Below, piece after piece: positions 21,292-58,875 of a stretch of DNA of 64,000 nucleotides. This DNA comes from Parcubacteria group bacterium GW2011_GWA2_42_14 (GTDB lineage: Bacteria > Patescibacteriota > Minisyncoccia > Sungbacterales > GWA2-42-14). Positions within the stretch are counted from its first letter, which is position 1, and each line of letters starts with the position of its first letter. A model generated the notes under the pieces. That model worked only from the letters and a program-made list of their open reading frames with translations, made no database searches and was not told where the DNA came from. Made by a program: the position numbers and the translations under genes. The stretch is taken from the NCBI GenBank assembly GCA_000998135.1, contig LCCV01000004.1:21681-85680 (forward strand), written 5' to 3'.

Positions 21292-21332
21292 GTAAAAGGT
21301 CTTTAAGCCCTTTTTGTTTCAGAACCAGTATA

Positions 21333-21437
21333 GACCTTTTGCAAAATAAGGTTTATTCCCAAAATTTTATTCCCTGAGCCTGTCGAAGGGTAAAATTTTG
21401 GCTTAAAATCAAGGTATGTCTTCGACAAGCTCAGACA
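21333..21437. repeat. MITE-like repeat, family F4 (GACCTTTTGCAAAATAAGG ... CCTGAGCCTGTCGAAGGGTAA ... GGTATGTCTTCGACAAGCTCAG)
   Basis: Inverted repeats CTGAGCCTGTCGAAGG / CTTCGACAAGCTCAG. Other copies at 31021-31163 and 56984-57050, and a fragment at 58199-58222. Confidence 0.65.
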
Positions 21438-21472
21438 ATAATGAATAATAGTCTTATTTTGCAAAGGGTCTT

Positions 21473-30018: not shown

Positions 30019-31020
30019 ATGTCTTTGGAAAAATTAAAAACTTATTATTCCGAGAGCGCGGCTCGAGCCATGATTTCCGATTTTCCGGTTTGCCGGCCCA
30101 ATCAATCTGTTGAGGAGGCGCGTTCTTATATTTTGGAAGGAGCGAGGCACTTTGAAACCATTAATTATATTTATGTTATAGGAGACGATAAAAAGCTTCT
30201 CGGAACCGTTTCGCTCCGCGAACTTTTTCAGGCAGAAAAAGAGCGGAAGATTTCCGGCATCATGAAAACTGGTCCGGTTTTTCTTCATCCTCATTCTGAC
30301 CAGGAAAAAGCTGTTCTTTTGGCTTTGCATAATAATATCAAAGCTGTGCCGGTGGTTGACCAGAACCATATTTTATTGGGGATAATACCGTCCGACAAAA
30401 TACTCCAGATTCTGCATTCGGAACATGTGGAGGATCTTTTGAGGGTTGCCGGTATTACAAAATCAATTGAAGAGGTTGCGCATTTGGGCAAGGAATCTTC
30501 GTTTAAGCTCTTTGGACGCAGAATCCCCTCGCTTTTAATAGGCCTTTTTGCGGGCATTGTTGCCGCTTGGTGGATAAGCTCGTTTGAGCATATGATTGAG
30601 GCCGAGTTTCTTTTTGTCGCGTTTATTCCCGCTGTTGTTTATCTTTCTGACGCGGTAGGAACGCAGACGCAGATATTATTTATAAGAGATATGACTTTTG
30701 CCGAACTGTTTCGGACATCGTCTTATATTATCCAGGAATTGAAAGTTGGACTGTTAATATCCATTGCCCTTTCTATGCTTTTTATCGGCGGCGGATTCTT
30801 AATGGGCGGTTCCGTGCAATTTGCCGCAATATTAGTCATTACCGTCGTTTTATCGGTGTTTGCGGCCATGGCCGTATCGCTCTTTGTTCCGTGGCTTCTT
30901 ATTCGTCTGAAACATGACCCGGCCTTGGCTTCCGGCCCTTTTTCTACGGCAGTTTCCGATGTTTTTAGTCTTGTAATTTATTTCACGGTTGCTTCAGTGA
31001 TTTTGAATTTATTTTCTTAA
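30019..31020 (+). CDS. mgtE: magnesium transporter MgtE-like (CBS pair plus MgtE membrane domain, no N-terminal MgtE_N)
   Basis: CBS-like segments followed by five hydrophobic helices and the DPALASGPFSTAVSDVFSLVIYF motif. Confidence 0.65.
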   Translation: MSLEKLKTYYSESAARAMISDFPVCRPNQSVEEARSYILEGARHFETINYIYVIGDDKKLLGTVSLRELFQAEKERKISGIMKTGPVFLHPHSDQEKAVLLALHNNIKAVPVVDQNHILLGIIPSDKILQILHSEHVEDLLRVAGITKSIEEVAHLGKESSFKLFGRRIPSLLIGLFAGIVAAWWISSFEHMIEAEFLFVAFIPAVVYLSDAVGTQTQILFIRDMTFAELFRTSSYIIQELKVGLLISIALSMLFIGGGFLMGGSVQFAAILVITVVLSVFAAMAVSLFVPWLLIRLKHDPALASGPFSTAVSDVFSLVIYFTVASVILNLFS

Positions 31021-31163
31021 GACCTTTTGCAAAATAAGGATTATAGCCGAAATTTTTATGGTGAGCCCGTCGAACCATTATTCCCTGAGTATGTCGAAGG
31101 GTAATAGTTCAATAAACTCACTATAAAAATTTTGGCTTAAAATCAAGGTATGTCTTCGACAAG
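31021..31163. repeat. MITE-like repeat, family F4 (copy 2)
   Basis: Starts at the base after the mgtE stop and ends just before the partial tRNA copy. Confidence 0.65.
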
Positions 31164-31180
31164 CCCCGTTGAAATGTGGT

Positions 31181-31236: not shown

Positions 31237-31307
31237 GCGAGATTGGTTTAGTGGTAAAACGAGTGCTTCCCAAGCATTAGACAGGAGTTCGATTCTCCTA
31301 TCTCGCA
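31237..31307 (+). tRNA. tRNA-Gly (anticodon CCC)
   Basis: Manual fold: acceptor GCGAGAT/ATCTCGC with G1-C72, C2-G71, G3-C70; anticodon loop TTCCCAA; T-arm AGGAG-TTCGATT-CTCCT. No encoded CCA. Confidence 0.7.
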
Positions 31308-31480
31308 CAATAGTGGACTTTTCGCGCTTCGGCACATCAATCGCCGTTTCTATTTCAGAAAATCTGCGGGTTCTAACATCGTCTAATTGCCCGTATAGAG
31401 AAATGGAACTTTTTATTGCTGATTATTAAAATCTTCTGAGAAAGAAATGGTTTTTGAGTGGTCGGGTGAGGTTCTAACCA
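31308..31480. repeat. module X, copy 1, of a modular repeat of about 180 nt
   Basis: Shares GTGGAC...TTCAGAAA(T)CTCGCGGGTTCTAAC...TATAGAGAAA...TTCTGAGAAAGAAATGGTTTTTGAGTGGTCGGGTGAGGTTCTAAC with 32185-32368 and 33135-33450. Confidence 0.6.
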
Positions 31481-31623
31481 AAAACCTACTAGCTATTGAC
31501 TTATTTTTAGTTTTGTAATAGTCTTGATAATAGAAGTTTCAACCTACCCGAACCCCTCAAGCCGAGTGTTCGGCTTCAAAGGTAAATTTCGGCAAAAACA
31601 AACAGAGAAGGAGGGACCGAAAG

Positions 31624-32082
31624 ATGTTCGGAGTAATCATCGCGGTTTTGATCGGACTGTTTCAGTACATTTTTGTCACGAAGACGCCGGAGGCAATCTG
31701 GCTGACTTCCACGGGCTTTCTGTTTTGGTGGTACATAGTGTGGTCGTCAATCCTTGCCATCATCGTTTTCCTTGTGATGTTGGGTATCACTGGTGCCACG
31801 ACATTCGCGGCTGGATCCACTGGATACGGTGCTGGTAGCAAGTTGTTGCGGGGTATTGGTGGTTTTGTTGGAGGCGGAGCTCTTTCATTGCTGGTCGGTG
31901 TTTTGTTCTTCATTTCCGCTGGCCTAAAAATCGGAGGCATATACTTGCTTTCAACTGCAGTTGTACTTACCGAGCAGGGCTATGTGTGGAATACTACGAC
32001 TTTGATTTTCGGCACCCTTGCTTTGGTCGTTGGACTCATTATGAGCAAATCTTCAGGTTCTTCATCCTCGTCAAAATCCTAG
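31624..32082 (+). CDS. small Gly-rich integral membrane protein with a Ser-rich tail
   Basis: 152 aa with four hydrophobic segments and a ...SSGSSSSSKS C-terminus. Confidence 0.45.
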   Translation: MFGVIIAVLIGLFQYIFVTKTPEAIWLTSTGFLFWWYIVWSSILAIIVFLVMLGITGATTFAAGSTGYGAGSKLLRGIGGFVGGGALSLLVGVLFFISAGLKIGGIYLLSTAVVLTEQGYVWNTTTLIFGTLALVVGLIMSKSSGSSSSSKS

Positions 32083-32103
32083 ACTGGCGAGGCAAACGAG
32101 TTT

Positions 32104-32135
32104 GGCTGGTTGAGCGTATCAACCAGCCGTTTTTT
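32104..32135. terminator. intrinsic terminator
   Basis: GGCTGGTTGAGCGTATCAACCAGCC hairpin followed by TTTTTT. Confidence 0.6.
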
Positions 32136-32184
32136 ATGTAAAATCAGTTCGAGAGAGGTTCTAACATCGTCTATAAAAGTGCAC

Positions 32185-32368
32185 ACTAGTGGACCTTTAG
32201 CGTTCTTGCCGCGCGAAAAGTATTTAGACTTCAGAAATCTCGGAGGTTCTAACGCCGTCTCGTTGCTTGTATAGGGAAAGAGAAAAATTTTTAATTGTCA
32301 AAACCAATTCTTCTGAGAAAGAAATGGTTTTTGAGTGGTCGGGTGAGGTTCTAACTAAAAACCACGAG
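32185..32368. repeat. module X, copy 2
   Basis: See 31308-31480. Confidence 0.6.
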
Positions 32369-32447
32369 ACCTTGTATTTTTTAAGGGAATGATATAATAT
32401 TCTCTACAGAATAGAACACAACAGATACACATTAGGAGGTTTAGACG

Positions 32448-32819
32448 ATGGGAAAGATGGCTTTGCTCGCTGTTTTATTGAGTGTTTTCGTTTTGACCGC
32501 TTGCGACAATGCGCCGCGTTTACCACAAGGAACGCTTGTGAAAGAAGACAACGCAGAAATCCAGGCGCAGTTTGACCGACTTAGCAAAGATGAAACCGCT
32601 ACCGTCACAATCGGAGACGAACATGTAATGTTGATGGTTTTAAAAGATTTCATGAGTACGGACAACATCCGTGGTGTTGGTGGCGGTGATCCATGCAAAG
32701 CATACCGACTTACTGCGAAGGATGGGACAAAAGAAGTTGGGGTTGTCTGCAAAAGTATGCCGTTCGGCAAGAAGTGGGAACATCGCCCGTGGCGCGAATG
32801 GTTTCATTCACTTAGATAA
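32448..32819 (+). CDS. putative lipoprotein
   Basis: MGKMALLAVLLSVFVLTAC lipobox. 123 aa. Confidence 0.45.
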   Translation: MGKMALLAVLLSVFVLTACDNAPRLPQGTLVKEDNAEIQAQFDRLSKDETATVTIGDEHVMLMVLKDFMSTDNIRGVGGGDPCKAYRLTAKDGTKEVGVVCKSMPFGKKWEHRPWREWFHSLR

Positions 32820-33134
32820 TCGTCTAACAGCACAAGCGCCCTTGAGGACACAACCCCAGGGGCATTTTCTTTCAAAATCGAGGTTCTAACGTCGTCTATA
32901 AAAGTGCACCAAAATCTGATTTTCGGAAAATTGACCGACTTTTTCGTTGGCGGCGCAAAGCGCCGCCACCGAAATGGTCTGGAAATTTGCAATTCGTCAG
33001 ATTTTGGTGTGTCTTTACGGTTTGGCTCGAACTCATTTTATCCGAAATTCCTAAAAACTGACTGGAGGCCGCGCTTCGCGCGGAGAATCAGGAATTTTTG
33101 ATAAAATAGTTTCGAGCCGTACTGTAAAGATACA

Positions 33135-33450
33135 CAATAGTGGACTTTTAGCGCTTCGGCGCATCAATTGCCGTTTCTATTTCAGAAATCTCGCGGGTTC
33201 TCCTCCTTCGCTCTACGAGCTTCGGCGGACGCAGTAACACTTGCCTTGCCGTAGCTTCAGCGAAGGCAGGTCGTCTCGCTGCCCGCTTGCCCTGCCGTAG
33301 CTTTACGCGACTGCGTGCCACCTTAGCTTTAGCGGTGGAGCAAGGCGGGTATAGAGAAGTAGAACTTTTTATTGCTAAAAACTAAAATTTTCTGAAAAAG
33401 AAATGGTTTCTCAATGGTTTTGCAGAGGTTCTAACAAAAAAGCGGCTTGA
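33135..33450. repeat. module X, copy 3, with a GC-rich hairpin-rich insertion of about 150 nt (33201-33347)
   Basis: The module is split at CGCGGGTTCT | ... | GGGTATAGAGAAG. The insert contains repeated CC..GCCGTAGCTTYA..G hairpins. Confidence 0.55.
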
Positions 33451-39034: not shown

Positions 39035-40348
39035 ATGAAGAAATATTTTATTGCCAGTTTGGCCTCTTTCGGAATTATCGGCGCTTTTTGGCTGTCTGCC
39101 AATTTTAATATTGTCAATATTTCCGGGCTGTGGAATAAAACGCCTTCGCAGGGCCTTGCTCAAAAAGAGGAAAAAACAAATGAACCGGAAAAACCGCGTG
39201 AAAAAACAAAAGAAGAATTGGTTGCCGAAGCCCTGGAAAAATCAAATAATATTAAAGGGGTTTATATGACCGCGGCCGTTGCCACCGACAATGGGGCCGC
39301 TTCCAAACGTCTTCGCCAATCACTTGTGGATTTGGTTAAGACAACGGAATTAAATGGGATTGTTATTGATATCAAAGAAACTGACGGGGTTTTTCTTCCA
39401 GAATCTCTGAAAAAATTTATTGAAGAATTGCATAAAGACGATATTTGGGTGATTGCGCGTTTGGTCGTTTTTAACGACACGGTTGAGGCCAAAGCAAATC
39501 CAAAAATAGCATTAAAACGCATCAATGGAAAATTATGGCTAGACCGGCGGGGAAATGGCTGGCTGGATCCGGCAAGTCAAGAGGCCTGGGATTATATTGC
39601 CGGAATTTCTAAAAAAGCAATTGATTATGGATTTGATGAGATTCAATACGACTATATAAGATTTCCATCTGACGGCGATACAAAAAATATTGTCTACCCT
39701 GTGTATAAATCTAAAACAACTCCTAAATATGTTGTCTTGAAATCATTTTTTGAATATATCAGCAAGGCATTGAAAGAATATAAACCCAGTATAATTCTTT
39801 CGGCTGACCTTTTTGGGTACGTGGCCACACAAGCTAATGATTTGGGAGTTGGGCAGAGAATTGAAGACATCGGCAACAGTTTTGATTATATTTCTTTTAT
39901 GCTTTATCCGAGCCACTATTATTCCGGTTTCCAGGTTCCGGCAGATTCTGTTCGCGGACTCCCCGCCGTTTATTTTCCCTACCGGGGAAAAGTCGTAAAA
40001 GATTTGGCTTCCAATCGGCCTTATGAAGTCGTGCATCGTTCATTGCTTTTCGCCATGGATATTTTGTCGGGAAGAGTTGCCACTTCATCTTTGGCTGGCG
40101 TTAACGCAAAAAAAATGGCTACTTCAACGTTGATTGTGCGGGAATCCGAAATTAAGCCGTTAAGCAAATCCCGGCTTCGGCCATGGCTTCAGGATTTTGA
40201 TTTGTCCGCCGACACTTCCAGAGGCATAAAGTACGACGTGGAAAAGGTCAGGGCGCAAATTATGGCCTCCGAAAACGCCGGCGCTTCCGGCTGGCTCTTG
40301 TGGAATCCGTCCAATGTTTATACTAAAGAAGCTTTGCAGTTAAAGTAG
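39035..40348 (+). CDS. putative TIM-barrel glycoside-hydrolase-like protein (GHL/DUF4015-type)
   Basis: N-terminal TM segment. IKGVYMTA... NGIVIDIKETDG ... FDEIQYDYIRFP pattern. Its last 27 codons are duplicated at 41773-41852. The upstream in-frame ATG at 38990 is a possible alternative start. Confidence 0.45.
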   Translation: MKKYFIASLASFGIIGAFWLSANFNIVNISGLWNKTPSQGLAQKEEKTNEPEKPREKTKEELVAEALEKSNNIKGVYMTAAVATDNGAASKRLRQSLVDLVKTTELNGIVIDIKETDGVFLPESLKKFIEELHKDDIWVIARLVVFNDTVEAKANPKIALKRINGKLWLDRRGNGWLDPASQEAWDYIAGISKKAIDYGFDEIQYDYIRFPSDGDTKNIVYPVYKSKTTPKYVVLKSFFEYISKALKEYKPSIILSADLFGYVATQANDLGVGQRIEDIGNSFDYISFMLYPSHYYSGFQVPADSVRGLPAVYFPYRGKVVKDLASNRPYEVVHRSLLFAMDILSGRVATSSLAGVNAKKMATSTLIVRESEIKPLSKSRLRPWLQDFDLSADTSRGIKYDVEKVRAQIMASENAGASGWLLWNPSNVYTKEALQLK

Positions 40349-40360
40349 ATTGTCCAGCTC

Positions 40361-40403
40361 TTGTAAATTAACCTCATTTCGATTATAATCGAAATGAGGT
40401 TAA
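40361..40403 (+). promoter_or_regulatory. putative autoregulated promoter: TTGTAA, 17 nt, TATAAT, with the -10 centred in a 16-bp perfect palindrome (TTAACCTCATTTCGAT|TATAAT|CGAAATGAGGTTAA)
   Basis: Read directly. Immediately upstream of the wHTH (AbiEi-like) gene. Confidence 0.5.
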
Positions 40404-40429
40404 TTTTTATCAATAAAAATCGAAACAAT

Positions 40430-41023
40430 ATGCTGAAAAAAGAAGCAATTTGGCGGGAAATTTTAATTCAGGCCCGAATGAATAAAAAGGCAATATTTAC
40501 CCAAAAAGAACTTGCGGCTTATTTTGGCTTTTCTCTAAGCACCGTTTTTAATGCCCTTAAAGTTTTACGGGCGGCGAACATTATATCGGTTAGCGGCAGG
40601 AATTTTCGTTTGGAATCATATCAAAAACTGCTTTATCTCTGGGCTTCGTTTAGGACATTTCGTAATGATTTAGCATATAGCGCGCGAATCGCGCTTGATC
40701 CAAAAAAGATAGAATCATCAGTTCCTCCCGACAGCGACTTTGGTCTTTATAGCGCGTCTGTTCTTTTATATCATATTGAGCCGGCTGACTACGACCATAT
40801 ATATCTGTATGCTGACGAGGCGCGCATCGCCGAAATTTTTGAACGATTTCCCGGGGCGGATCTTTCCTCCAAAAATCCTAATTTTTTTATTCTTAAAAAA
40901 GATCAATGGCTCACGCGGTATGCGGAAATGCCGCTTGAACAGATTTTTGTTGATATTTGGAATGCGCCGGAATGGTATGCAAAAGATTTTTTGAAAAATA
41001 TAGAGGATAAACTTTTGCCGTAA
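40430..41023 (+). CDS. winged-HTH regulator / antitoxin, AbiEi-like
   Basis: N-terminal wHTH (FTQKELAAYFGFSLSTVFNALKVLRAANII) plus a C-terminal domain. Paired with a downstream nucleotidyltransferase. The upstream in-frame ATG at 40394 is a possible alternative start. Confidence 0.45.
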   Translation: MLKKEAIWREILIQARMNKKAIFTQKELAAYFGFSLSTVFNALKVLRAANIISVSGRNFRLESYQKLLYLWASFRTFRNDLAYSARIALDPKKIESSVPPDSDFGLYSASVLLYHIEPADYDHIYLYADEARIAEIFERFPGADLSSKNPNFFILKKDQWLTRYAEMPLEQIFVDIWNAPEWYAKDFLKNIEDKLLP

Positions 41024-41035
41024 GGGCAATAGACC

Positions 41036-41128
41036 TGTTGCTTAATAATTTTTTGGGAAAATTTGATGCAAAAAACCCTTATTTTAAGCCACTAATTTTT
41101 TAAAAAAACGGCTAAAATCTTAATAGAC
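41036..41128. repeat. element F8 (AATAGACCTGTTGCTTAATA ... TTAATAGAC); its core is inverted relative to the copy at 55382-55478
   Basis: The central 70 bp is the exact reverse complement of the corresponding segment at 55400-55470. Flanked by TTAATA/TATTAA. Confidence 0.6.
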
Positions 41129-41140
41129 GAAATAATAAAT

Positions 41141-41764
41141 ATGGAACAATTTTGGCACAATATAATTACTGATAAGTCTTTTGTTTTTTTGCAGAAATTA
41201 AGAAAGAAGTTCAAATTTGTTTTAATCGGCGGCTGGGCGGTTTATTTTTATACCCATTCGCTTAAATCAAAGGATATTGATATCATCGTCAATTTTGAAG
41301 AACTGGGGCGTCTTCGTGAATCTTTTGACGTGAGAAAAAACGATCGGCTGAAAAAATATGAAATCCAGCAAGCCGGATTTGATATTGATATTTATGTTCC
41401 GCATTGGTCGGAACTCGGCCTGCCGCTTGAGGACGTTCTCAATACAGCAACGCTTATTGAGGGTTTTCGGGTTCCGGAAAAAGAGGTACTATTCGCGTTA
41501 AAACTATTTGCGTATTCACAAAGAAAATCTTCGCTAAAGGGAAAAAAAGATATGATTGATATCCTAAGTCTTTTATATTCTGGCGGTGCCCGGTTTCCAT
41601 CCCTTTTTAAAATAATTGAAAAATATAATGCCCGCGGCATCGGCGCGGAGCTTAAGGAGATTTTGACGACAGTTTTTGAAGTAAAAGAGTTAAATCTAAA
41701 CCGGAAGCATTTTTCGGACTTTAAGAAACCGATTCTCAAAGAATTGCAATCGAGAAATTTTTAA
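41141..41764 (+). CDS. nucleotidyltransferase-fold protein, AbiEii-like toxin candidate
   Basis: VLIGGWAVYFY ... KDIDIIV: an NTase G[GS] motif followed by DxD. Confidence 0.45.
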   Translation: MEQFWHNIITDKSFVFLQKLRKKFKFVLIGGWAVYFYTHSLKSKDIDIIVNFEELGRLRESFDVRKNDRLKKYEIQQAGFDIDIYVPHWSELGLPLEDVLNTATLIEGFRVPEKEVLFALKLFAYSQRKSSLKGKKDMIDILSLLYSGGARFPSLFKIIEKYNARGIGAELKEILTTVFEVKELNLNRKHFSDFKKPILKELQSRNF

Positions 41765-41772
41765 ATTTCCCT

Positions 41773-41852
41773 AATTATGGCCCCCGAAAACGCCGGCGCT
41801 TCTGGCTGGCTCTTGTGGAATCCGTCCAATGTTTATACTAAAGAGGCCTTAA
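41773..41852 (+). repeat. direct repeat: displaced duplicate of the 3' end of the GH-like gene (about 80 bp, about 95% identical to 40262-40336)
   Basis: ATTATGGCCCCCGAAAACGCCGGCGCTTCTGGCTGGCTCTTGTGGAATCCGTCCAATGTTTATACTAAAGAGGC compared with the gene copy; it would encode ...NVYTKEALRGR*. Confidence 0.7.
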
Positions 41853-51607: not shown

Positions 51608-51734
51608 AGGATGTTAAAATAAAAAAGTAAAAGTAATTGCGGCGCAATAAGGGTATTTTTGGAGTATTTAACAGCAGTTGACCGGTATGTTTAAAAAATA
51701 TTTGATAAAAAATATTTTTATCTATTCCCCCATC

Positions 51735-53048
51735 ATGACAGAATTTTCTCTGTTTATTCCGTCGCAATTAAAATTATTTGCCGGAGAATTGAATAGTGCC
51801 GTATGGAATTGGGCCGCTGCTGAATCTAGAAAATTTTTTGAAGATAGCGACTGGCAGGAATTGGTATTTATTAAGCTTAGAAACATACTTGTTCATGCCG
51901 GCAGAAATGTTCCGTACTGGCGGAGAATTTTTAGGGAAATCGGTTTTAATCCCCAAAAATTTAAAAACTTTGAAGATTTTCAAAAGTTGCCTGTTATTAC
52001 CAGAAAAAAACTAAAAAAAATTCCTATTGAAGAATTAATCGCAAAAAATATTTCAAAAAAATATTTTATACAAGCAGCTACTTCCGGTTCTACCGCCGAA
52101 CCGTTAAAATTTTTTCAAGACGGAAAGATAATTTTATTGCGCCGTCTGTTTCTTTTTTACGAATTAAATTATCCTAATTTTCGTGACGGTCCTTTTTTGT
52201 TAATTGGCCTTCAGACCATAAGGCATTTAAACGGATTGGGGTATCAAGTAGGCGGACATAAGTTGGAAGACGATAATTGGCGGATAAAGATTTTTTATCC
52301 GAACATCCGTTCTTTCCGTCCACGATACATTCTTTCCACCCCATCTTATTTAAAGAGATTTATTTTTTTTTGTCAACGAGATGGTTTTACGGTTGACAGA
52401 TTGGCCGGGGTTTTTTGTTATGGGGAACATTTTGGAGAAGAAGAGCGGCGAAGTGTTGAAGCATTCCTTGGTTGCCCTGCTTATGCTGTTTACGGTTCAC
52501 AAGAATGTTCGCTTATTGCCAGTCAATGCGCTAAATATAATTATCATGTAGCCCCCTGGATGAATTATGTTGAAATCATTGATGATAATGATAAACCGGT
52601 TTCTAGGGGTGTTTTAGGCAGAATTGTTATTACGTCACTTATGAATGAAACAATGCCTTTTATTCGTTATCAACTGGGGGATTTGGGCCGTTTAAGCAGC
52701 GGTAAGTGTTTATGCGGCAATTCGAGTCCAATTATTGAAATTGAGGGCAGGATTGTCGGTAATATAGAATTTTCTGATGGTACGGCCTTTCCATTATATC
52801 CCATATTGCAATATTTGGCAGATCATTATTCATCGGAAATTAAACAATTTCAGATTGAACAAATGTCTAAATTTCGGTTAATCTTTAGATACATCCCAAT
52901 GTATACCGGACAATCTTTAGATTTTGAGCGGGTGATGACAGAATACTTAAATTCCATAGTTAGGAATAGGATGGACATTAAGATGGAGGTCATTGATTAT
53001 ATTTTTCCGAACCAAAATGGAAAAACTCCTATATTTATAAAAAGATAA
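51735..53048 (+). CDS. PaaK/CapK-like adenylating enzyme, paralog 3
   Basis: TSGSTAEPLKF and YQLGD. Confidence 0.6.
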   Translation: MTEFSLFIPSQLKLFAGELNSAVWNWAAAESRKFFEDSDWQELVFIKLRNILVHAGRNVPYWRRIFREIGFNPQKFKNFEDFQKLPVITRKKLKKIPIEELIAKNISKKYFIQAATSGSTAEPLKFFQDGKIILLRRLFLFYELNYPNFRDGPFLLIGLQTIRHLNGLGYQVGGHKLEDDNWRIKIFYPNIRSFRPRYILSTPSYLKRFIFFCQRDGFTVDRLAGVFCYGEHFGEEERRSVEAFLGCPAYAVYGSQECSLIASQCAKYNYHVAPWMNYVEIIDDNDKPVSRGVLGRIVITSLMNETMPFIRYQLGDLGRLSSGKCLCGNSSPIIEIEGRIVGNIEFSDGTAFPLYPILQYLADHYSSEIKQFQIEQMSKFRLIFRYIPMYTGQSLDFERVMTEYLNSIVRNRMDIKMEVIDYIFPNQNGKTPIFIKR

Positions 53049-53059
53049 TTTTTTTGGAA

Positions 53060-53173
53060 ATGATTCAGGATAAAAATATAACGCCGGTGATAATTCTAGC
53101 CGCGGGCCGAGGCCGGCGGCTGATGCCGTTTACGGCGGACAGGCCGAAGTGTTTGGTGGCGGCTGGAAAGTAG
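53060..53173 (+). pseudogene. truncated duplicate of the 5' end of the NTP-transferase gene at 55495
   Basis: Encodes MIQDKNITPVIILAAGRGRRLMPFTADRPKCLVAAGK*. The DNA is about 90% identical to 55540-55615. Confidence 0.6.
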
Positions 53174-53248
53174 GGTTGGTGGCGATTGGCATAATAAAAG
53201 ATTTTTGGCTTTTTTGAATTTTGCTTTTGGTTGTGATAGAATAAAGCA

Positions 53249-54115
53249 ATGGATAAGCAAAACGGGTTAATAAGAAAACTAAAAGAGTATTTTGAAAAGC
53301 GCGATGACGTGGCGATGGCTTTTTTATTCGGGTCGCGGGCCGAAGATCGGCGGCATTCCGGTTCCGACTGGGATATTGCCGTATATTTTAAACCAGAGGT
53401 GGAACGAACCGAATGGGAAGAACATAACCGCGAGTACCCGGAAGAAACCCGTGTCTGGGGCGACTGTGTTGATATTTTAAAAACGGATAAAGTGGATTTG
53501 CTAGTGCTTAATCGGGCCCCAGCTACCATTGCCGATTCGGCCATACGCGGCGTCCCGTTAGTGGTAAAAGACCGCGGACTCTGGTTAGAGTTTATGCTTA
53601 TTATTACCAGCGCTGCTGAAGATTTGAGAGAATTTGCCCGTGATTATTACGAAATTTATATGCGCTCAAAATCTCTTACCTTGCGCGACGCGGAGAGATT
53701 AGGCAGAATTATTGAGTTTATTAATAATCAAATGACTCTTTATTCGGTTTTTCGCGAGCTTACTTTTGGAGAATACGAGAAGGATTTGATTAAACGCGGA
53801 GCGGCAGAGCGCTGGGTTGAGAATATGGTTAACTCGACAATGGATATTTCTAAAATAGTTCTTTCCTCCAGCAAAAAGCCCATGCCTTACGGCTATGCGG
53901 ACACGATTCGCGTTGCTCTGCTTTATTTAAACATTAATGATGGGTTTTGGCAAAAATTTTTGGATTGGGTTAAGCTCCGGAACGCTTTGGCTCACGAATA
54001 TACTGATATTAAGTGGAAGAAAATTGAAGATTTTGCCAAAACCAGCGAACCTTATTTTCAGACCTTAGTTAAATCAGCCCAAACATTTTTGGAAAGAGAA
54101 AGAGAAGGCGTTTAG
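53249..54115 (+). CDS. fused minimal nucleotidyltransferase + HEPN (DUF86) protein
   Basis: N-terminal FLFGSRAEDRRHSGSDWDIAVY (GS...DxD). C-terminal LRNALAHEY (Rx4-6H). Confidence 0.65.
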   Translation: MDKQNGLIRKLKEYFEKRDDVAMAFLFGSRAEDRRHSGSDWDIAVYFKPEVERTEWEEHNREYPEETRVWGDCVDILKTDKVDLLVLNRAPATIADSAIRGVPLVVKDRGLWLEFMLIITSAAEDLREFARDYYEIYMRSKSLTLRDAERLGRIIEFINNQMTLYSVFRELTFGEYEKDLIKRGAAERWVENMVNSTMDISKIVLSSSKKPMPYGYADTIRVALLYLNINDGFWQKFLDWVKLRNALAHEYTDIKWKKIEDFAKTSEPYFQTLVKSAQTFLEREREGV

Positions 54116-54142
54116 CGTTAAAAATCCTCAATAAATCTCAAT

Positions 54143-54205
54143 AAAATTTTTCATCCCGCCACTCTAGCCAAGGGCGGGATTTATCAAGTTTCATTGATAT
54201 TTTAA
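54143..54205. repeat. hairpin repeat F7 (TTTTTCATCCCGCC-loop-GGCGGGATTTATCAA)
   Basis: 8-bp stem ATCCCGCC/GGCGGGAT. Second copy at 55262-55322. Together they bracket the 54533-55245 gene pair. Confidence 0.6.
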
Positions 54206-54532
54206 TTTCGTCCGCAAGAATTCCCCGCGGCAAGCCGCGGGGATGAATTGCGGAGCACGAAATTAACCCAGCACCAAGTTTTTCGATAATCTTCTGATAA
54301 CGCAATTGCAAGCCGCAGGCGATTCCGTGAAATAAACAAGTGATTTAAGATAACCGTTTTCGAACTTTGGCGCTGGGTAATGAATATAAAATAAGATACC
54401 CCGCGTCGCTTGGCGCGGGGTGACAATAAATTCATTAAGCGAAGGCCGTCGTAAAAGAAGGGCGTAAAACGGCAGAAAGTGGATGATAGAGGGAGTTTGA
54501 CCAGGAATCAATAGGTATGATACAGTTTATAT

Positions 54533-54766
54533 ATGGTTATATTAACGCAAAAAAAACGTTTTAAATCACGCGAGCTTATTATTGATTTTGAAAGGTATCG
54601 CGGTCAACACGTGGCGATTTTTAATAATCGCGTAATCGGACGGGGCTCTTCCGCGACGGAGGCAATTAAGGAGGCTTTGCGTTTTTCTCCTCGCCTCGAG
54701 CGTTCTCAATTGATACTATTTTTCGTTCCTAAACAGCCGATTTTTATCTACTTTTTTCAAGCATGA
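54533..54766 (+). CDS. small hypothetical protein, cotranscribed with an aspartic protease
   Basis: 77 aa. Its stop overlaps the downstream start (ATGA). Confidence 0.3.
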   Translation: MVILTQKKRFKSRELIIDFERYRGQHVAIFNNRVIGRGSSATEAIKEALRFSPRLERSQLILFFVPKQPIFIYFFQA

Positions 54767-55245
54767 CAAGTATGAAGGGAATAATTTATCCGTATCGTAT
54801 ACGGCTGCGCTATGATGGCGGCATTGAAACTTTGCCGCTTATTTTATCCAGAATTAAATATGAACGCGGCGAACCTTTGACTGTTCTTTGCCTTTTGGAT
54901 TCCGGCGCGCAGGTCTCATTGCTTTCTAAAGCTGACGCAGACGAACTTAATATTGTTTTGGCTGATGGAGAAAAAATGGTTGTGGGCGGGGTTGGTGGTG
55001 AAGAAATAATTGGCTATCGGCACAATATTACTATTGATATTGGGGGAGTATCGTTTAGCGCGCCTGCTGTTTTCGCGATACGTGACGATGTGCCAAGAGT
55101 GCTTGGACGAGATGGCGTCTTTAATAATTTTTTCATTATTTTTGATGAAAAACGGCGCCGCGCCGCGCTCTTAAAATATCAAGCGGCTGCGATTACCGTG
55201 ATGGAAAAAGAAATTTTTAGTCGATTACCGATTGAGCCGCTATGA
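54763..55245 (+). CDS. retropepsin-like (clan AA) aspartic protease
   Basis: LLDSGAQVSLL contains the D-S-G-A catalytic motif; about 160 aa. Confidence 0.55.
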   Translation: MTSMKGIIYPYRIRLRYDGGIETLPLILSRIKYERGEPLTVLCLLDSGAQVSLLSKADADELNIVLADGEKMVVGGVGGEEIIGYRHNITIDIGGVSFSAPAVFAIRDDVPRVLGRDGVFNNFFIIFDEKRRRAALLKYQAAAITVMEKEIFSRLPIEPL

Positions 55246-55261
55246 GTTTTTTGATTCCCTA

Positions 55262-55322
55262 AAAGATTTTTCATCCCGCCCCTTATTTAATGGCGGGATT
55301 TATCAAATTTTACCGATGTTTT
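55262..55322. repeat. hairpin repeat F7 (copy 2)
   Basis: Same stem as 54153-54180 with a different loop. Confidence 0.6.
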
Positions 55323-55381
55323 TATGGCCGGTCTATTAAGCAAATGTTAGTATTATTGCACTCGCGGATGGCGTTTCCTAT

Positions 55382-55478
55382 AATAGACCTGTTGCTTATT
55401 AAGATTTTAGCCGTTTTTTTAAAAAATTAGTGGCTTAAAATAAGGGTTTTTTGCATCAAATTTTCCCAAAAAATTATT
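55382..55478. repeat. element F8 (copy 2; core inverted relative to 41036-41128)
   Basis: See 41036-41128. Confidence 0.6.
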
Positions 55479-55494
55479 AATGCGGAACAAAGCC

Positions 55495-56286
55495 ATGGTT
55501 TCAAAACCGGAAAAATCTAAGCATGATATACGCGTTTTAATCCTTGCCGCGGGCCGAGGCCGGCGGCTGATGCCTTATACGGCGGACAGGCCCAAGTGTT
55601 TGGTGGAGGTAGGTGGCCGGCCGATTTTATTTTATCAGCTGCGGGCTCTGGAAAAACACGGCATTAAAAACGTTGTTATAGTTGTCGGTTATCAGGCGGA
55701 AAAAATCAAAGATTATGTTCGCGATAATTTTTCCGGTTTAAAAGTTGAGTTTGTTTATAATCCTGATTACTTATCCACTAACGATATTTATTCATTGTAT
55801 CTGGCGCGTTCTTATTTGAATGACGGCGTTATTATTCTTGATTCCGATGTTTTGTTTCATTCGAAAATGCTTTCCGAATTATCAGAGTATCATTCCGGTC
55901 GAAGCGCTATTTGTGTCAGAGTCGGCAGCTGCGGAGACGAAGAAATGAAAGTGGGGGTTAATTCCAAAGGGATGGTCGTTCGCCTTAGTAAGGGCTTGCC
56001 GCCTGAAGAAACAGTTGGTGAGTCCATGGGAATATCTTTTTTTTCAGATAAATTTTCAAATTATCTCTCGCGTACCTTGGAAAAGATTATTGATATGGGC
56101 GGGATTCTTTTATATAGAGAGGCGGCAATTGAAAGAGTTATTTCTGAACATGCGGAACCATTGCATCTTTTGAATATAAGCCGGTATCCCGCTATTGAAA
56201 TTGATTTTCCGGAAGACATAGAAAGAGCCGAGAAAGAGATTTTGCCGCAAATAATTGGTGAATTTAAATTGACACAGTATAGATAA
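55495..56286 (+). CDS. sugar-phosphate / phospho-alcohol nucleotidyltransferase (NTP_transferase fold)
   Basis: ILAAGRGRRLMPYTADRPKCLVEVGGRPIL signature (G-x-G-x-R-L). The upstream in-frame ATG at 55480 is a possible alternative start. Confidence 0.65.
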   Translation: MVSKPEKSKHDIRVLILAAGRGRRLMPYTADRPKCLVEVGGRPILFYQLRALEKHGIKNVVIVVGYQAEKIKDYVRDNFSGLKVEFVYNPDYLSTNDIYSLYLARSYLNDGVIILDSDVLFHSKMLSELSEYHSGRSAICVRVGSCGDEEMKVGVNSKGMVVRLSKGLPPEETVGESMGISFFSDKFSNYLSRTLEKIIDMGGILLYREAAIERVISEHAEPLHLLNISRYPAIEIDFPEDIERAEKEILPQIIGEFKLTQYR

Positions 56287-56306: not shown

Positions 56307-56537
56307 ATGACAACCAAAATCCTTATTTTAAAAGAAGCAAAGCTTTCGTTGCCCAAGTCGTGGCGTGGTTCTGAAATATTGATGCGGACGGAAGGCGATA
56401 TGCTGGTCGTAAAAAAAATCCTGAAGTCGCCGGGGCCGATTTTTGATGAGCCGGCAACACGGACCTTGGAATTGCTTGGAAGGCGCGTATCGGCCAAAAC
56501 CATCCGTGAGGCGGTACGTTGGGCCAGAAAGCGGTAA
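56307..56537 (+). CDS. AbrB/MazE-type antitoxin (VapB-like)
   Basis: 76 aa, immediately upstream of the PIN gene. Small basic C-terminus. Confidence 0.45.
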   Translation: MTTKILILKEAKLSLPKSWRGSEILMRTEGDMLVVKKILKSPGPIFDEPATRTLELLGRRVSAKTIREAVRWARKR

Positions 56538-56540
56538 TTT

Positions 56541-56963
56541 ATGCTGGTTGTGCTTGATACAAACGTTGTCGTTTCCGCGATTTTATGGAAAGGGCGCCTT
56601 GCTCCTTTATTTGAACTTCTTAACCGGCGCGTCCTCACGCCCTGTTTCAATCCAGAAACCGTTGCTGAACTTTTCCGCGTAGCAGACTATCCGCATATTT
56701 TTAAGCAGTCCCGGCGCATGGGCACTGATTTGAAATCTGTTTTTGCCCGAGTCGTTGAGGCGGGTATTGTGGTGGAGGACGTAAAAATTTCCGAAACGGT
56801 TCCGGATGATCCATCTGATGAAAAGTTTCTTGCCTGTGCCGTAGTAGCACGGGCAAATTTTATTATATCCGGAGACAGCCATTTGCTCCGCCTCGGAATG
56901 TTTCGCGATATTCCTATTCTTTCACCGAGAATGTTTTTGGCAATTTTTAAAAAGGAAATTTAA
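56541..56963 (+). CDS. PIN-domain ribonuclease toxin (VapC-like)
   Basis: MLVVLDTNVVVSA... with acidic residues in the D...E...D...D pattern. Confidence 0.65.
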   Translation: MLVVLDTNVVVSAILWKGRLAPLFELLNRRVLTPCFNPETVAELFRVADYPHIFKQSRRMGTDLKSVFARVVEAGIVVEDVKISETVPDDPSDEKFLACAVVARANFIISGDSHLLRLGMFRDIPILSPRMFLAIFKKEI

Positions 56964-56983: not shown

Positions 56984-57050
56984 AGACCTTTTGCAAAATA
57001 AGCTTTCGCGTTTTTATTGTCTGAGCTTGTCGAAGACATACTTTAATTTT
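56984..57050. repeat. MITE-like repeat, family F4 (partial copy 3)
   Basis: GACCTTTTGCAAAATAAG ... CTGAGCTTGTCGAAGACATAC. Confidence 0.55.
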
Positions 57051-57081
57051 ATAAGATTTTATGCTGAAATTTTACCCTTCG

Positions 57082-58188
57082 ATGAAAATGAATGACCTCT
57101 TTTTAAATTTTAAGATCCTGCTGTCGTTTTGGGACATAATCAAGCGGCGGGATTTTATTTTGGGCAAGGCCGTCAAAGATTTTGAGAAGAAACTCGCGTT
57201 ATATCTTGAAGCGCCTTATGTTTTAGGAGTGGCCAGCTGCACCGACGCACTGATTCTATCCTTAAAGGCGCTTGGCATCGGGCATGGGGACGAAGTAATT
57301 GTTCCGGCCGTCAGTTTTTTTTCAACTGCCGGAGCGGTTTCCTGGGTTAACGCCAAACCGGTTTTTGTTGATATTGAAGAAAAAAGTTTTAATATCAACT
57401 CGGATTTAATTGAAAAAGTCATTATGCCAAAAACTAAAGCGATAATTGTTGCGCATCTTGCCGGTAGAATGGCAGCTCTGGAAAAAATTTCTGCTCTTAC
57501 AGGAAAGTATAATTTATATTTAATTGAAGACGCGGCTCAAACTCTCGGCGCTAAATATAAAAATCGCCATATCGGATATTACGCCGATTTGGCTTGTTTA
57601 AGTTTTAATCCCCAAAAAATTCTTTCGGCTTACGGCGACGGCGGAGCGATTGTGACCGGACAAACCGCACTGGCGGAAAAAATTTCTATGATGAGAATGT
57701 ACGGAGCTAACGGCTATAAAGAAGTAAGTTTTCGCCACCCGATTGCCGGTGTTTCCAGCCGATTAAGTTCTTTTCAGGCGGCCGTATTAAATATAAAACT
57801 TGACCAATTGAACAAAATTATTGAAAAATGGAGGAAAAATTATTTTTTGTACTCGGAACTTTTGAGGGGCGTTGACAGCATCGTTCTTCCGGAAACCCCT
57901 TCCGAGGACTATTACATTAACGGTTATCGTTTTATTATTTTAACAAAAAAAAGAGATGAATTGCTTAAATACCTAAGAGATAATAGGGTAGATGCGCGCA
58001 GCCACTATTCGGTTCCGCTTCCTTATCTTGGCGCGTTTGAGTATTTGAATTATAAAAAGGGTGATTTTCCGGTTGCCGAAAAATTTGCCGAAGAATCCCT
58101 GGCGCTTCCTTTAAGCCACAGGATATCGGAATCGGAAATGCGCCATATCGCTGATTTAATAAGGAAATTTTTTGAGGTTATCGAATAA
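57082..58188 (+). CDS. DegT/DnrJ/EryC1/StrS-family PLP-dependent sugar aminotransferase
   Basis: FILGKAVKDFEKKLALYLEAPYVLGVASCTDAL, and a PLP-lysine region ...SFNPQKIL... The upstream in-frame ATG at 57061 is a possible alternative start. Confidence 0.8.
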   Translation: MKMNDLFLNFKILLSFWDIIKRRDFILGKAVKDFEKKLALYLEAPYVLGVASCTDALILSLKALGIGHGDEVIVPAVSFFSTAGAVSWVNAKPVFVDIEEKSFNINSDLIEKVIMPKTKAIIVAHLAGRMAALEKISALTGKYNLYLIEDAAQTLGAKYKNRHIGYYADLACLSFNPQKILSAYGDGGAIVTGQTALAEKISMMRMYGANGYKEVSFRHPIAGVSSRLSSFQAAVLNIKLDQLNKIIEKWRKNYFLYSELLRGVDSIVLPETPSEDYYINGYRFIILTKKRDELLKYLRDNRVDARSHYSVPLPYLGAFEYLNYKKGDFPVAEKFAEESLALPLSHRISESEMRHIADLIRKFFEVIE

Positions 58189-58311: not shown

Positions 58312-58593
58312 TTGTTAATATACGCATATATGGTTAAAATTATTTCGTTGGACAAAATAGAGAATAATTTGACTGGTTTTTTTGGAGGTTTGCAAAGAAA
58401 TTCTTATGTGGTGGTGAAAAAAAACGGCAAGACGATTGCCGGTATTATTAATGCCGAGGAAATGGAGGATTTTTTAGACGCGCGTGATTTGTCTCTGCAA
58501 AAACAAATTAGGCGAAGTTATCGGGAGTTTAAAGGCGGTAAAGCCAAGCCAGCGCGTATTCTTCTTCAAAAAATTACTGCAACAGGAAAATAA
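58312..58593 (+). CDS. Phd/YefM-like antitoxin candidate
   Basis: 93 aa, directly upstream of and abutting the RelE/ParE-like gene. Confidence 0.4.
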   Translation: MLIYAYMVKIISLDKIENNLTGFFGGLQRNSYVVVKKNGKTIAGIINAEEMEDFLDARDLSLQKQIRRSYREFKGGKAKPARILLQKITATGK

Positions 58594-58875
58594 ATGGCAA
58601 AGTATATTGTTTTAACAACTTCGCTTTTTGACCGAGAAGCCGGGAAACTCGCTAAATTCCATAGGAATATCACCGATGTTTTATCCTCGGTGATTTTTGT
58701 TTTGGAAAACGACCCTTTCAATAATTCACGGCATTATGATATTCGTAAACTAGAAAGCGTTAAACACGGAGAAGGTCAGTTTCGAATTCGCTTAGGACAA
58801 TGGCGGATCCGCTATGATGTGGAGGATGATAAGGTTATTCTTTATTCTTTTCGCGACCGTAAAGAAGGGTATTGA
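58594..58875 (+). CDS. RelE/ParE-family toxin
   Basis: C-terminal WRIRYDVEDDKVILYSFRDRKEGY, typical of RelE/ParE. Confidence 0.6.
   Translation: MAKYIVLTTSLFDREAGKLAKFHRNITDVLSSVIFVLENDPFNNSRHYDIRKLESVKHGEGQFRIRLGQWRIRYDVEDDKVILYSFRDRKEGY

Follow-up and report, generated by a model that had tools for sequence, protein, structure and literature searches.

We describe an insertion of about 2.4 kb at the 5′ end of a nucleotidyltransferase (NTP-transferase) gene of Parcubacteria group bacterium GW2011_GWA2_42_14. The stretch analysed, referred to as the window, comprises 64,000 nucleotides of assembly GCA_000998135.1 (contig LCCV01000004.1, positions 21,681 to 85,680), and all coordinates are those of the window unless another contig is named. 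The insert lies between a truncated copy of the transferase gene (the orphan, an open reading frame (ORF) of 38 codons) and the intact gene, and carries a fused MntA-HepT (MNT-HEPN) protein, a two-gene cassette and a small element with terminal inverted repeats (TIRs). That this DNA was inserted is proven by an empty-site allele in the same population. As judged from the sequence, the second copy of the gene piece was not made from the target but came in with the insert. We favour, with moderate confidence, Campbell-type single-crossover integration of a small circle without an integrase as the route by which it arrived.

The population is that of Candidatus Sungbacteria (Parcubacteria, Candidate Phyla Radiation, CPR) from the Rifle aquifer, in which the window is near-identical to contig MHQY01000033.1 of GCA_001820775.1 and to GCA_001822305.1. 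The filled allele is present in at least 14 independent contigs (NCBI, JGI and ENA assemblies). In three contigs of the same population (L105, L106 and L107) the ligase gene is followed by 12 nt, one intact transferase gene and a VapBC-like pair, with flanks 99.9–100% identical to the window; for L105 (JGI 3300025311) two substitutions and one T indel were counted in 1,760 nt of left flank and no differences in 1,473 nt of right flank. The filled and the empty allele coexist within samples (3300025311 with L104 and L105, ERZ4903125 with L019 and L107). Collapse of the empty-site contigs during assembly appears unlikely because they show a private single-nucleotide polymorphism (SNP) in the repeat core and a poly-T length difference and come from three assemblies. 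The protein of the empty allele, P0139 (259 aa, from the 90%-identity cluster of the window transferase), is encoded on L105 and L106, with the variant P0140 on L107, and consists of the orphan N-terminus MIQDKNITPVII followed by the rest of the window protein. In a related species (L003) the ligase gene is separated by 11 nt from a single transferase gene (80% amino-acid identity), with no orphan and with none of the three toxin–antitoxin-type insertions of the window. The initial annotation had described accessory DNA inserted at the 5′ end of the transferase gene between two copies of a gene piece, and had proposed a comparison with empty sites in relatives; the three empty-site contigs bear the description out, and they and L003 lack both cassettes and the extra fragment. 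In L107, the region corresponding to the window repeat (L107 143–214) holds four private substitutions within 72 nt, against one in the next 1,473 nt.

The two versions of the gene segment form a direct repeat of 72 nt (92% identity, six differences) with a spacing of 2,447 nt. The initial annotation had given the duplicated length as 80–110 bp; the measured values are 72 nt here and 78 nt at the comparison cassette described below. Inside the repeat lies an exact 29-mer, the core (GCCGCGGGCCGAGGCCGGCGGCTGATGCC), whose sole occurrences in the window, with up to three mismatches tolerated, are at 53099 and 55546 (0 expected in shuffled sequence). A partial transferase copy after the third ligase gene, as had been claimed, was thus recovered from both the ORF list and the repeat. 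Its description as a copy of the intact N-terminus holds for orphan codons 11–34, to which the likeness is confined, and fails for the first ten codons (MIQDKNITPV), which do not align with the first 14–16 codons of the intact gene (MVSKPEKSKHDIRV). No similarity was found past 53162 by blastn. A decayed pseudogene running beyond 53173 was rejected on this ground, and the fragment is not part of a longer paralog. The short length of the fragment would fit an assembly artefact or the leftover of a separate paralog, but this is the least credible of the explanations considered and is contradicted by the data: the orphan start is exactly that of the single gene in the empty allele, and the independent filled contigs share one structure.

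For the analysis of the junctions, sequence to the left of the core was labelled A (orphan type) or B (intact type) and sequence to the right C (orphan type) or D (intact type). The orphan reads A-core-C, the intact gene of the filled allele B-core-D and the empty allele A-core-D, while contig L010 reads B-core-C in its first 111 nt. Up to the edge of the core, the A and D sequences of the filled allele show no difference from the empty allele, and on the D side the identity extends across 1,473 nt. Both copies in the filled allele are chimeric, and the crossover lies in the core. B and C, by their sequence, are foreign: imported and resident versions differ at 7 of 72 positions, about as far as the L003 allele does, and the insert ends joined head to tail give one continuous transferase 5′ piece of 42 codons ending in TAG. 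Core position 13 is G in the empty alleles and in L003 and A in every element-linked copy, so the empty allele came first and was not newly produced by excision; the core common to the attL- and attR-like copies differs from the attB-type contigs at this one central base.

Duplication of the target in situ and later divergence, with the second copy produced by replication slippage or as a long target-site duplication, was the model implicit in the initial annotation. The insert is indeed bracketed by direct repeats of the gene end, but 6 of 72 positions differ between the copies, whose N-termini are unrelated, whereas 3,233 nt of flank show two substitutions and one 1-nt indel. Since filled and empty flanks are 99.9–100% identical over 3.2 kb, one copy must be regarded as imported. 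Nor are the traits of a transposon or insertion sequence seen: the insert ends lack terminal inverted repeats, no transposase was found, and the 72-nt repeats are 8% diverged despite the near-identical flanks. The only inverted pair near the insert ends (53045–53060 and 55462–55477) lies partly in resident DNA that the empty allele also holds. In-situ duplication is contradicted by these data and is very improbable. The features of the locus are collected in Table 1.

Table 1. Features of the insertion, its flanks and the comparison cassette.
Feature	Position	Strand	Evidence or remark
CapK/PaaK-like AMP-dependent ligase, resident left flank	51678–53048	+	Pfam AMP-binding (weak), NCBIfam acyl-CoA-ligase families
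Orphan ORF, 38 codons	53060–53173	+	ORF list; resident start, core and imported tail, stop TAG
A-left, resident start part of orphan	53060–53098	+	Identical to intact-gene start in empty-site contigs L105/L106
Repeat copy 1 (attL-like)	53091–53162	+	29-bp identical core 53099–53127
C-right, imported tail of orphan	53128–53173	+	Ends TAG
Certainly imported DNA, 2,418 bp	53128–55545	+	Lacking in L105, L106, L107; present in at least 14 contigs
Promoter-like TTGAAT-17-TAGAAT with upstream TG, before MNT-HEPN gene	53214–53242	+	Consensus scan only
Fused MntA-HepT (MNT-HEPN), 288 aa	53249–54115	+	Pfam Polbeta 1e-16, HepT-like 5e-13
Hairpin repeat 1, 8-bp GC stem, terminator-like, after MNT-HEPN	54136–54206	+	Fold z = -3.9
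Non-coding stretch	54202–54421	.	Long hairpin 54202–54266 (-39 kcal/mol), second GC hairpin 54398–54421
DUF5678 small protein, 77 aa	54533–54766	+	Pfam 28 bits, cut-off 23.2
Retropepsin-like aspartyl protease, 160 aa, DSGA motif	54763–55245	+	Pfam Asp_protease_2, Asp_protease, gag-asp_proteas
Hairpin repeat 2, ~81% identical to repeat 1	55256–55325	+	Repeat search, folding
Small TIR element ('F8' piece), window copy truncated	55384–55480	+	Full sister-contig copy 111 nt, perfect 15-nt TIRs TAGACCTGTTGCTTA
Chimeric intact NTP-transferase	55495 (alternative ATG 55480)–56286	+	Pfam NTP_transf_3, NTP_transferase; NCBIfam
B-left, imported transferase start MVSKPEKSKHDIRVLIL	55495–55545	+	Unrelated to resident start; missing from empty allele
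Repeat copy 2 (attR-like)	55538–55609	+	Core 55546–55574; resident sequence (D-right) from 55575 on
DUF4015 gene 3′ end, copy 1 of 78-nt, 95% repeat	40258–40335	+	Repeat search
Orphan DUF4015 3′ copy	41773–41850	+	After HTH gene, unknown gene and second TIR element copy (41030–41125)

In the course of events that we favour, a DNA circle of about 2.45 kb, or 2.53 kb going by the sister contigs, would have recombined once with the chromosome inside the 29 bp of identity. The circle would have carried the MntA-HepT fusion, the DUF5678/retropepsin pair, the small TIR element and a foreign transferase 5′ piece of about 125 nt comprising a probable promoter, a start codon and 42 codons. One product would be the resident start with a truncated foreign tail, a dead-end ORF at the position of the orphan; the other would be the foreign start with the resident gene body, at 55495–56286. 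Because the foreign start would be joined to the resident body, the transferase gene and the glycan operon behind it would stay functional despite the terminator-like hairpins of the cassettes. The rebuilt gene is probably served by an imported promoter. One contig end supports the presumed circularity of the incoming DNA, the joint was presumably made by homologous recombination and not by a dedicated recombinase, and toxin–antitoxin addiction or defence may explain the high frequency of the insert in the population.

The arrangement agrees with what such a crossover leaves behind. On either side of the insert stands a version of one gene segment, truncated in one copy and complete in the other, and joining the left part of copy 1 to the right part of copy 2 gives the uninterrupted target (L105, L106 and L107; P0139). 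Since a circle that bears a gene fragment will produce, by one crossover, a truncated resident copy and an intact chimeric copy, the uncharacterised insertion mechanism suggested in the initial annotation is not needed, and its derivation of the second copy from the target does not stand. No integrase or transposase domain was found in the main predicted genes of the window (Pfam) or in the cassette proteins (NCBIfam), which favours recombination by the host machinery.

Several points weigh against single-crossover integration. For RecA-type recombination, 29 bp of identity within 72 bp of 90–92% similarity comes close to the minimum. Core position 13 is A in both copies of the filled allele, where one G would be expected to survive a plain reciprocal crossover; A was thus either present in the recipient beforehand or introduced by correction of the heteroduplex. 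The B-core-C junction (left part of copy 2 plus right part of copy 1), which is the one that a circle or tandem copy should show, rests on 42 nt of left side at the one contig end (L010), with which a circle, a tandem duplication and an assembler tip are all compatible. Neither a donor with the B-type allele (MVSKPEKSKHDIRVLILAAG...FTADRPKCLVAAG) nor a free cassette was found in scans of genomes, metagenomes and viral contigs: the GTDB genome scan with the transferase gave, among the matches listed, identities of at most 46% and no close species, a single metagenome scan with the 29-mer core returned one contig only, of the filled type, and the viral-contig scans gave nothing for the core, the TIR element, the MNT-HEPN protein or the protease. 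The gene search covered 64 kb of the genome, and a recombinase acting in trans from elsewhere is a serious rival.

With such a recombinase, the 72-nt repeats would be attL and attR of a small mobilisable island bearing a surrogate 5′ gene end, and the recombinase acting within the core, of the tyrosine or serine type, would be encoded on a helper element or in another part of the genome. An exact 29-bp core amid imperfect similarity, the observation of attB-, attL-, attR- and possibly attP-type junctions and a homology that is very short for RecA would all follow, and a second cassette shows the same topology. Read by eye, the core also forms an imperfect dyad, CGCGGGCC-GA-GGCCGGCG, with the A/G SNP at its centre; the dyad is, however, built of Gly/Arg codons and may be incidental. 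No recombinase is encoded in the insert or among the main predicted genes of the window, and the repeat pairs of the two cassettes share only GCCGGCG, a heptamer that is unenriched in the window (13 found, 9.2 expected); a recombination motif common to both pairs was rejected on this count. Site-specific integration is accordingly held to be unlikely, though well short of negligible.

Linear import provides a further alternative, in which another strain would have donated linear DNA with the whole filled structure, or with the cassettes and what lies to their right, by double crossover or by homology-facilitated illegitimate recombination, the orphan being an illegitimate left joint. The operon does look like a recombination mosaic: the ligase shares 39% amino-acid identity with its L003 orthologue, against 84 and 85% nucleotide identity for the transferase and DegT genes. 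Along the transferase gene (55538–56246 against L003 2360–3068) identity is 88–97% up to about 55870–55900 and about 67–79% beyond (a fall from ~93–97 to ~70–78% after ~55900), which suggests an older recombination breakpoint inside the gene near this position. Strain L107 has a DegT gene at 91% and lacks the RelE-like pair found further downstream in the window. A replacement would not, however, leave a gene-homologous tail (C-right, 33 or more nt with four differences from D-right) on a resident start, nor would it account for A-left and D-right matching the empty allele up to the core. Linear import, which at best moves the origin of the structure to another host, is considered improbable.

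With one core copy the insert measures 2,447 bp, and the other population contigs have 87 nt more after 55480. The contents that had been described for it, a fused MNT-HEPN protein, a hairpin-bracketed two-gene cassette and the F8 element, were confirmed by Pfam and NCBIfam domains, the hairpin repeats and the inverted F8 copy. The MntA-HepT fusion scores 67.1 bits with NCBIfam MntA_antitoxin (cut-off 60) and 52 bits with HepT_toxin, and its translation holds the motifs GS...DxD (as GSRAEDRRHSGSDWD) and Rx4H (as RNALAH). The start of the protease gene overlaps the DUF5678 stop by 4 nt, and the protease has a weak PADLOC match (PDC-M08B). Hairpin repeats of about 70 nt stand behind each module, one after the MNT-HEPN gene and one after the DUF5678/protease pair. 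At the gathering threshold Rfam matched only a tRNA-Gly in the window, and no family in the non-coding stretch 54202–54421. A twister-P3 ribozyme match over the second hairpin repeat (55260–55338, minus strand; 25.9 bits, gathering score 39.9) is probably spurious, because the first copy of the repeat does not match.

The TIR element is present as identical copies in opposite orientation in both cassettes (41030–41125 and 55384–55480), the F8 piece 55397–55480 (84 nt) being a 100% inverted copy of 41042–41125. Full 111-nt copies are found at L108 6996–7104 and L002 6624–6732. The element resembles a miniature inverted-repeat transposable element (MITE) in its perfect 13–15-nt TIRs, its possible TA flanks, its hairpin fold and its identity at two loci; it differs in that two copies only were seen, no partner transposase is known and no target duplication could be demonstrated. 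By eye, a promoter-like TTGCAT-18-TATTAA, which the consensus scan did not list, can be read in the element facing the transferase gene. Relative to all other population contigs, including the otherwise 100% identical MHQY01000033.1, the window lacks 98, 87 and 102 nt at 41125/41126, 55480/55481 and 57082/57083, respectively. Each missing segment begins within a small TIR element, so that the right-hand TIR and 45–85 nt of flank are gone; the deletions either exist in the strain or arose in the assembly of the window's source. A second MITE-like family of about 140–150 nt with 20-nt TIRs (AGACCTTTTGCAAAATAAGG / CCTTATTTTGCAAxxGGTCT) was found at 21332–21472, 31020–31164 and 56984–57082, with a full copy at L001 11506–11655; one copy lies directly after the PIN gene of a VapBC-like pair.

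The recurrence of such insertions had been proposed from a second cassette labelled AbiE. For this claim there is that one further case. The cassette is flanked by a 78-nt repeat of the DUF4015 gene 3′ end with the mirror-image topology expected of a circle that carries a 3′ gene piece, which makes recurrence plausible; an empty site was not found, the population contigs all being filled or broken at a palindrome and the DUF4015 cluster lacking a variant C-terminus. The C-terminal tails of orthologues did not indicate which copy is native, and the relative L116 (79%) differs in its downstream region. The AbiE label (40394–41764) was unconfirmed by Pfam, NCBIfam and PADLOC: AbiEi/AbiEii domains were not matched, gene 1 gave a generic HTH only, and gene 2 gave no match as the 207-aa window form (Pfam, PADLOC) or as the 222-aa full form of L108 (NCBIfam). 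The palindrome, a perfect one of 42 nt (40365–40406), lies just past the DUF4015 stop at the left edge of this cassette, and several assemblies break there. Repeat family D1 (6836/10617), tried as a third gene-end duplication, was rejected as the shared upstream region of two different genes. Elsewhere in the window, within 31237–33418, three direct repeats, each about 160 nt long (31306–31462, 32182–32339 and 33133–33418), come after a tRNA-Gly(CCC); they bracket two small ORFs with no Pfam match and resemble tandem cassettes at a tRNA 3′ end.

The target operon is a cell-envelope glycan operon, in which the ligase stop lies 11 nt upstream of the orphan ATG and the NTP-transferase belongs to a family that sources name phosphocholine cytidylyltransferase. 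Homologues of the ligase outside the population all have at most 44% identity, and the contexts inspected (L101 and L102) are a modular cluster with no informative junction. Two further toxin–antitoxin-type pairs lie intergenically in the operon, at 56307–56963 (76 aa and PIN, VapBC-like) and 58312–58875 (93 aa and RelE-like), neither bordered by a gene-end duplication. At the position corresponding to the PIN pair L003 holds a GDPD gene, and the RelE-like pair is missing from both L003 and L107.

CPR bacteria have tiny genomes with few recognisable mobile elements and many toxin–antitoxin and defence genes, the arrival route of which is poorly documented. The present locus, a natural filled/empty polymorphism with junctions resolved to the base, makes the gain of such genes directly testable and offers a concrete case of gene flow through very short stretches of homology in uncultivated bacteria. 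Accessory cassettes can evidently settle inside a cell-envelope glycan operon and leave it unbroken, since the interrupted gene receives a new start codon, and probably a new promoter, from the DNA that comes in. For annotation, the lesson is that short orphan gene starts or ends beside accessory genes mark recombination joints and not paralog pseudogenes. One could go further and regard integrase-less small circles with toxin–antitoxin or defence genes and a 'homing' piece of a conserved gene end as a distinct class of CPR mobile cassette, inserting in housekeeping or envelope operons at conserved motifs, with the replacement gene end making insertion cost-free; both cases in the window, the tRNA-Gly-adjacent repeats and the 111-nt TIR element would then be one system. 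We hold this extension to be speculative and rather doubtful.

Among known systems, the closest likeness is to Campbell-type integration, the single crossover of circular DNA by which plasmids integrate through homology. Insertion-duplication mutagenesis makes use of it (PMC3936844). There too, a circle with a 5′ gene fragment leaves two copies, a truncated one upstream that keeps the resident promoter and a complete one downstream that has the incoming start, and the insert stands between direct repeats through which the event is reversible by recombination. The locus described here differs in being a natural event in an uncultivated CPR bacterium, with a homology of 72 nt (29 exact) and toxin–antitoxin/defence-type cargo; no replicon or vector functions were seen, and the circle is only tentatively observed.

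Integrase-driven islands and prophages likewise insert at a gene end for which they bring a surrogate, as in islands that target tRNA and tmRNA genes and in SCCmec at rlmH. Shared with these are the imperfect repeats of a resident and an element-borne gene end, the intact target and the coexistence of empty and filled alleles. The insert is, however, very small, no integrase was found in its 2.4 kb or in the 64-kb window, and it is the 5′ coding region of a protein gene that is hit, which obliges the element to bring a start codon and probably a promoter. Taken together, the lack of an integrase in these searches, the 5′-end target and the CPR host set the locus apart from the known Campbell and island cases.

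Integron cassettes are small circles, often with toxin–antitoxin genes, that are arrayed and bracketed by structured repeats. The small, presumably circular cassette, its cargo and its structured repeats recall them, but the recombining repeats are coding sequence of the target gene and no attI was recognised; on inspection the hairpin repeats lack the GTTRRRY/RYYYAAC ends (R′/R″) of attC sites, and no IntI-like protein was found in the window. As to cargo, the predicted MNT nucleotidyltransferase and HEPN RNase domains with their catalytic motifs correspond to those of the type VII HepT/MntA system, from which the protein differs as a fusion variant, a single polypeptide of 288 aa in the order MNT-HEPN in place of two adjacent genes.

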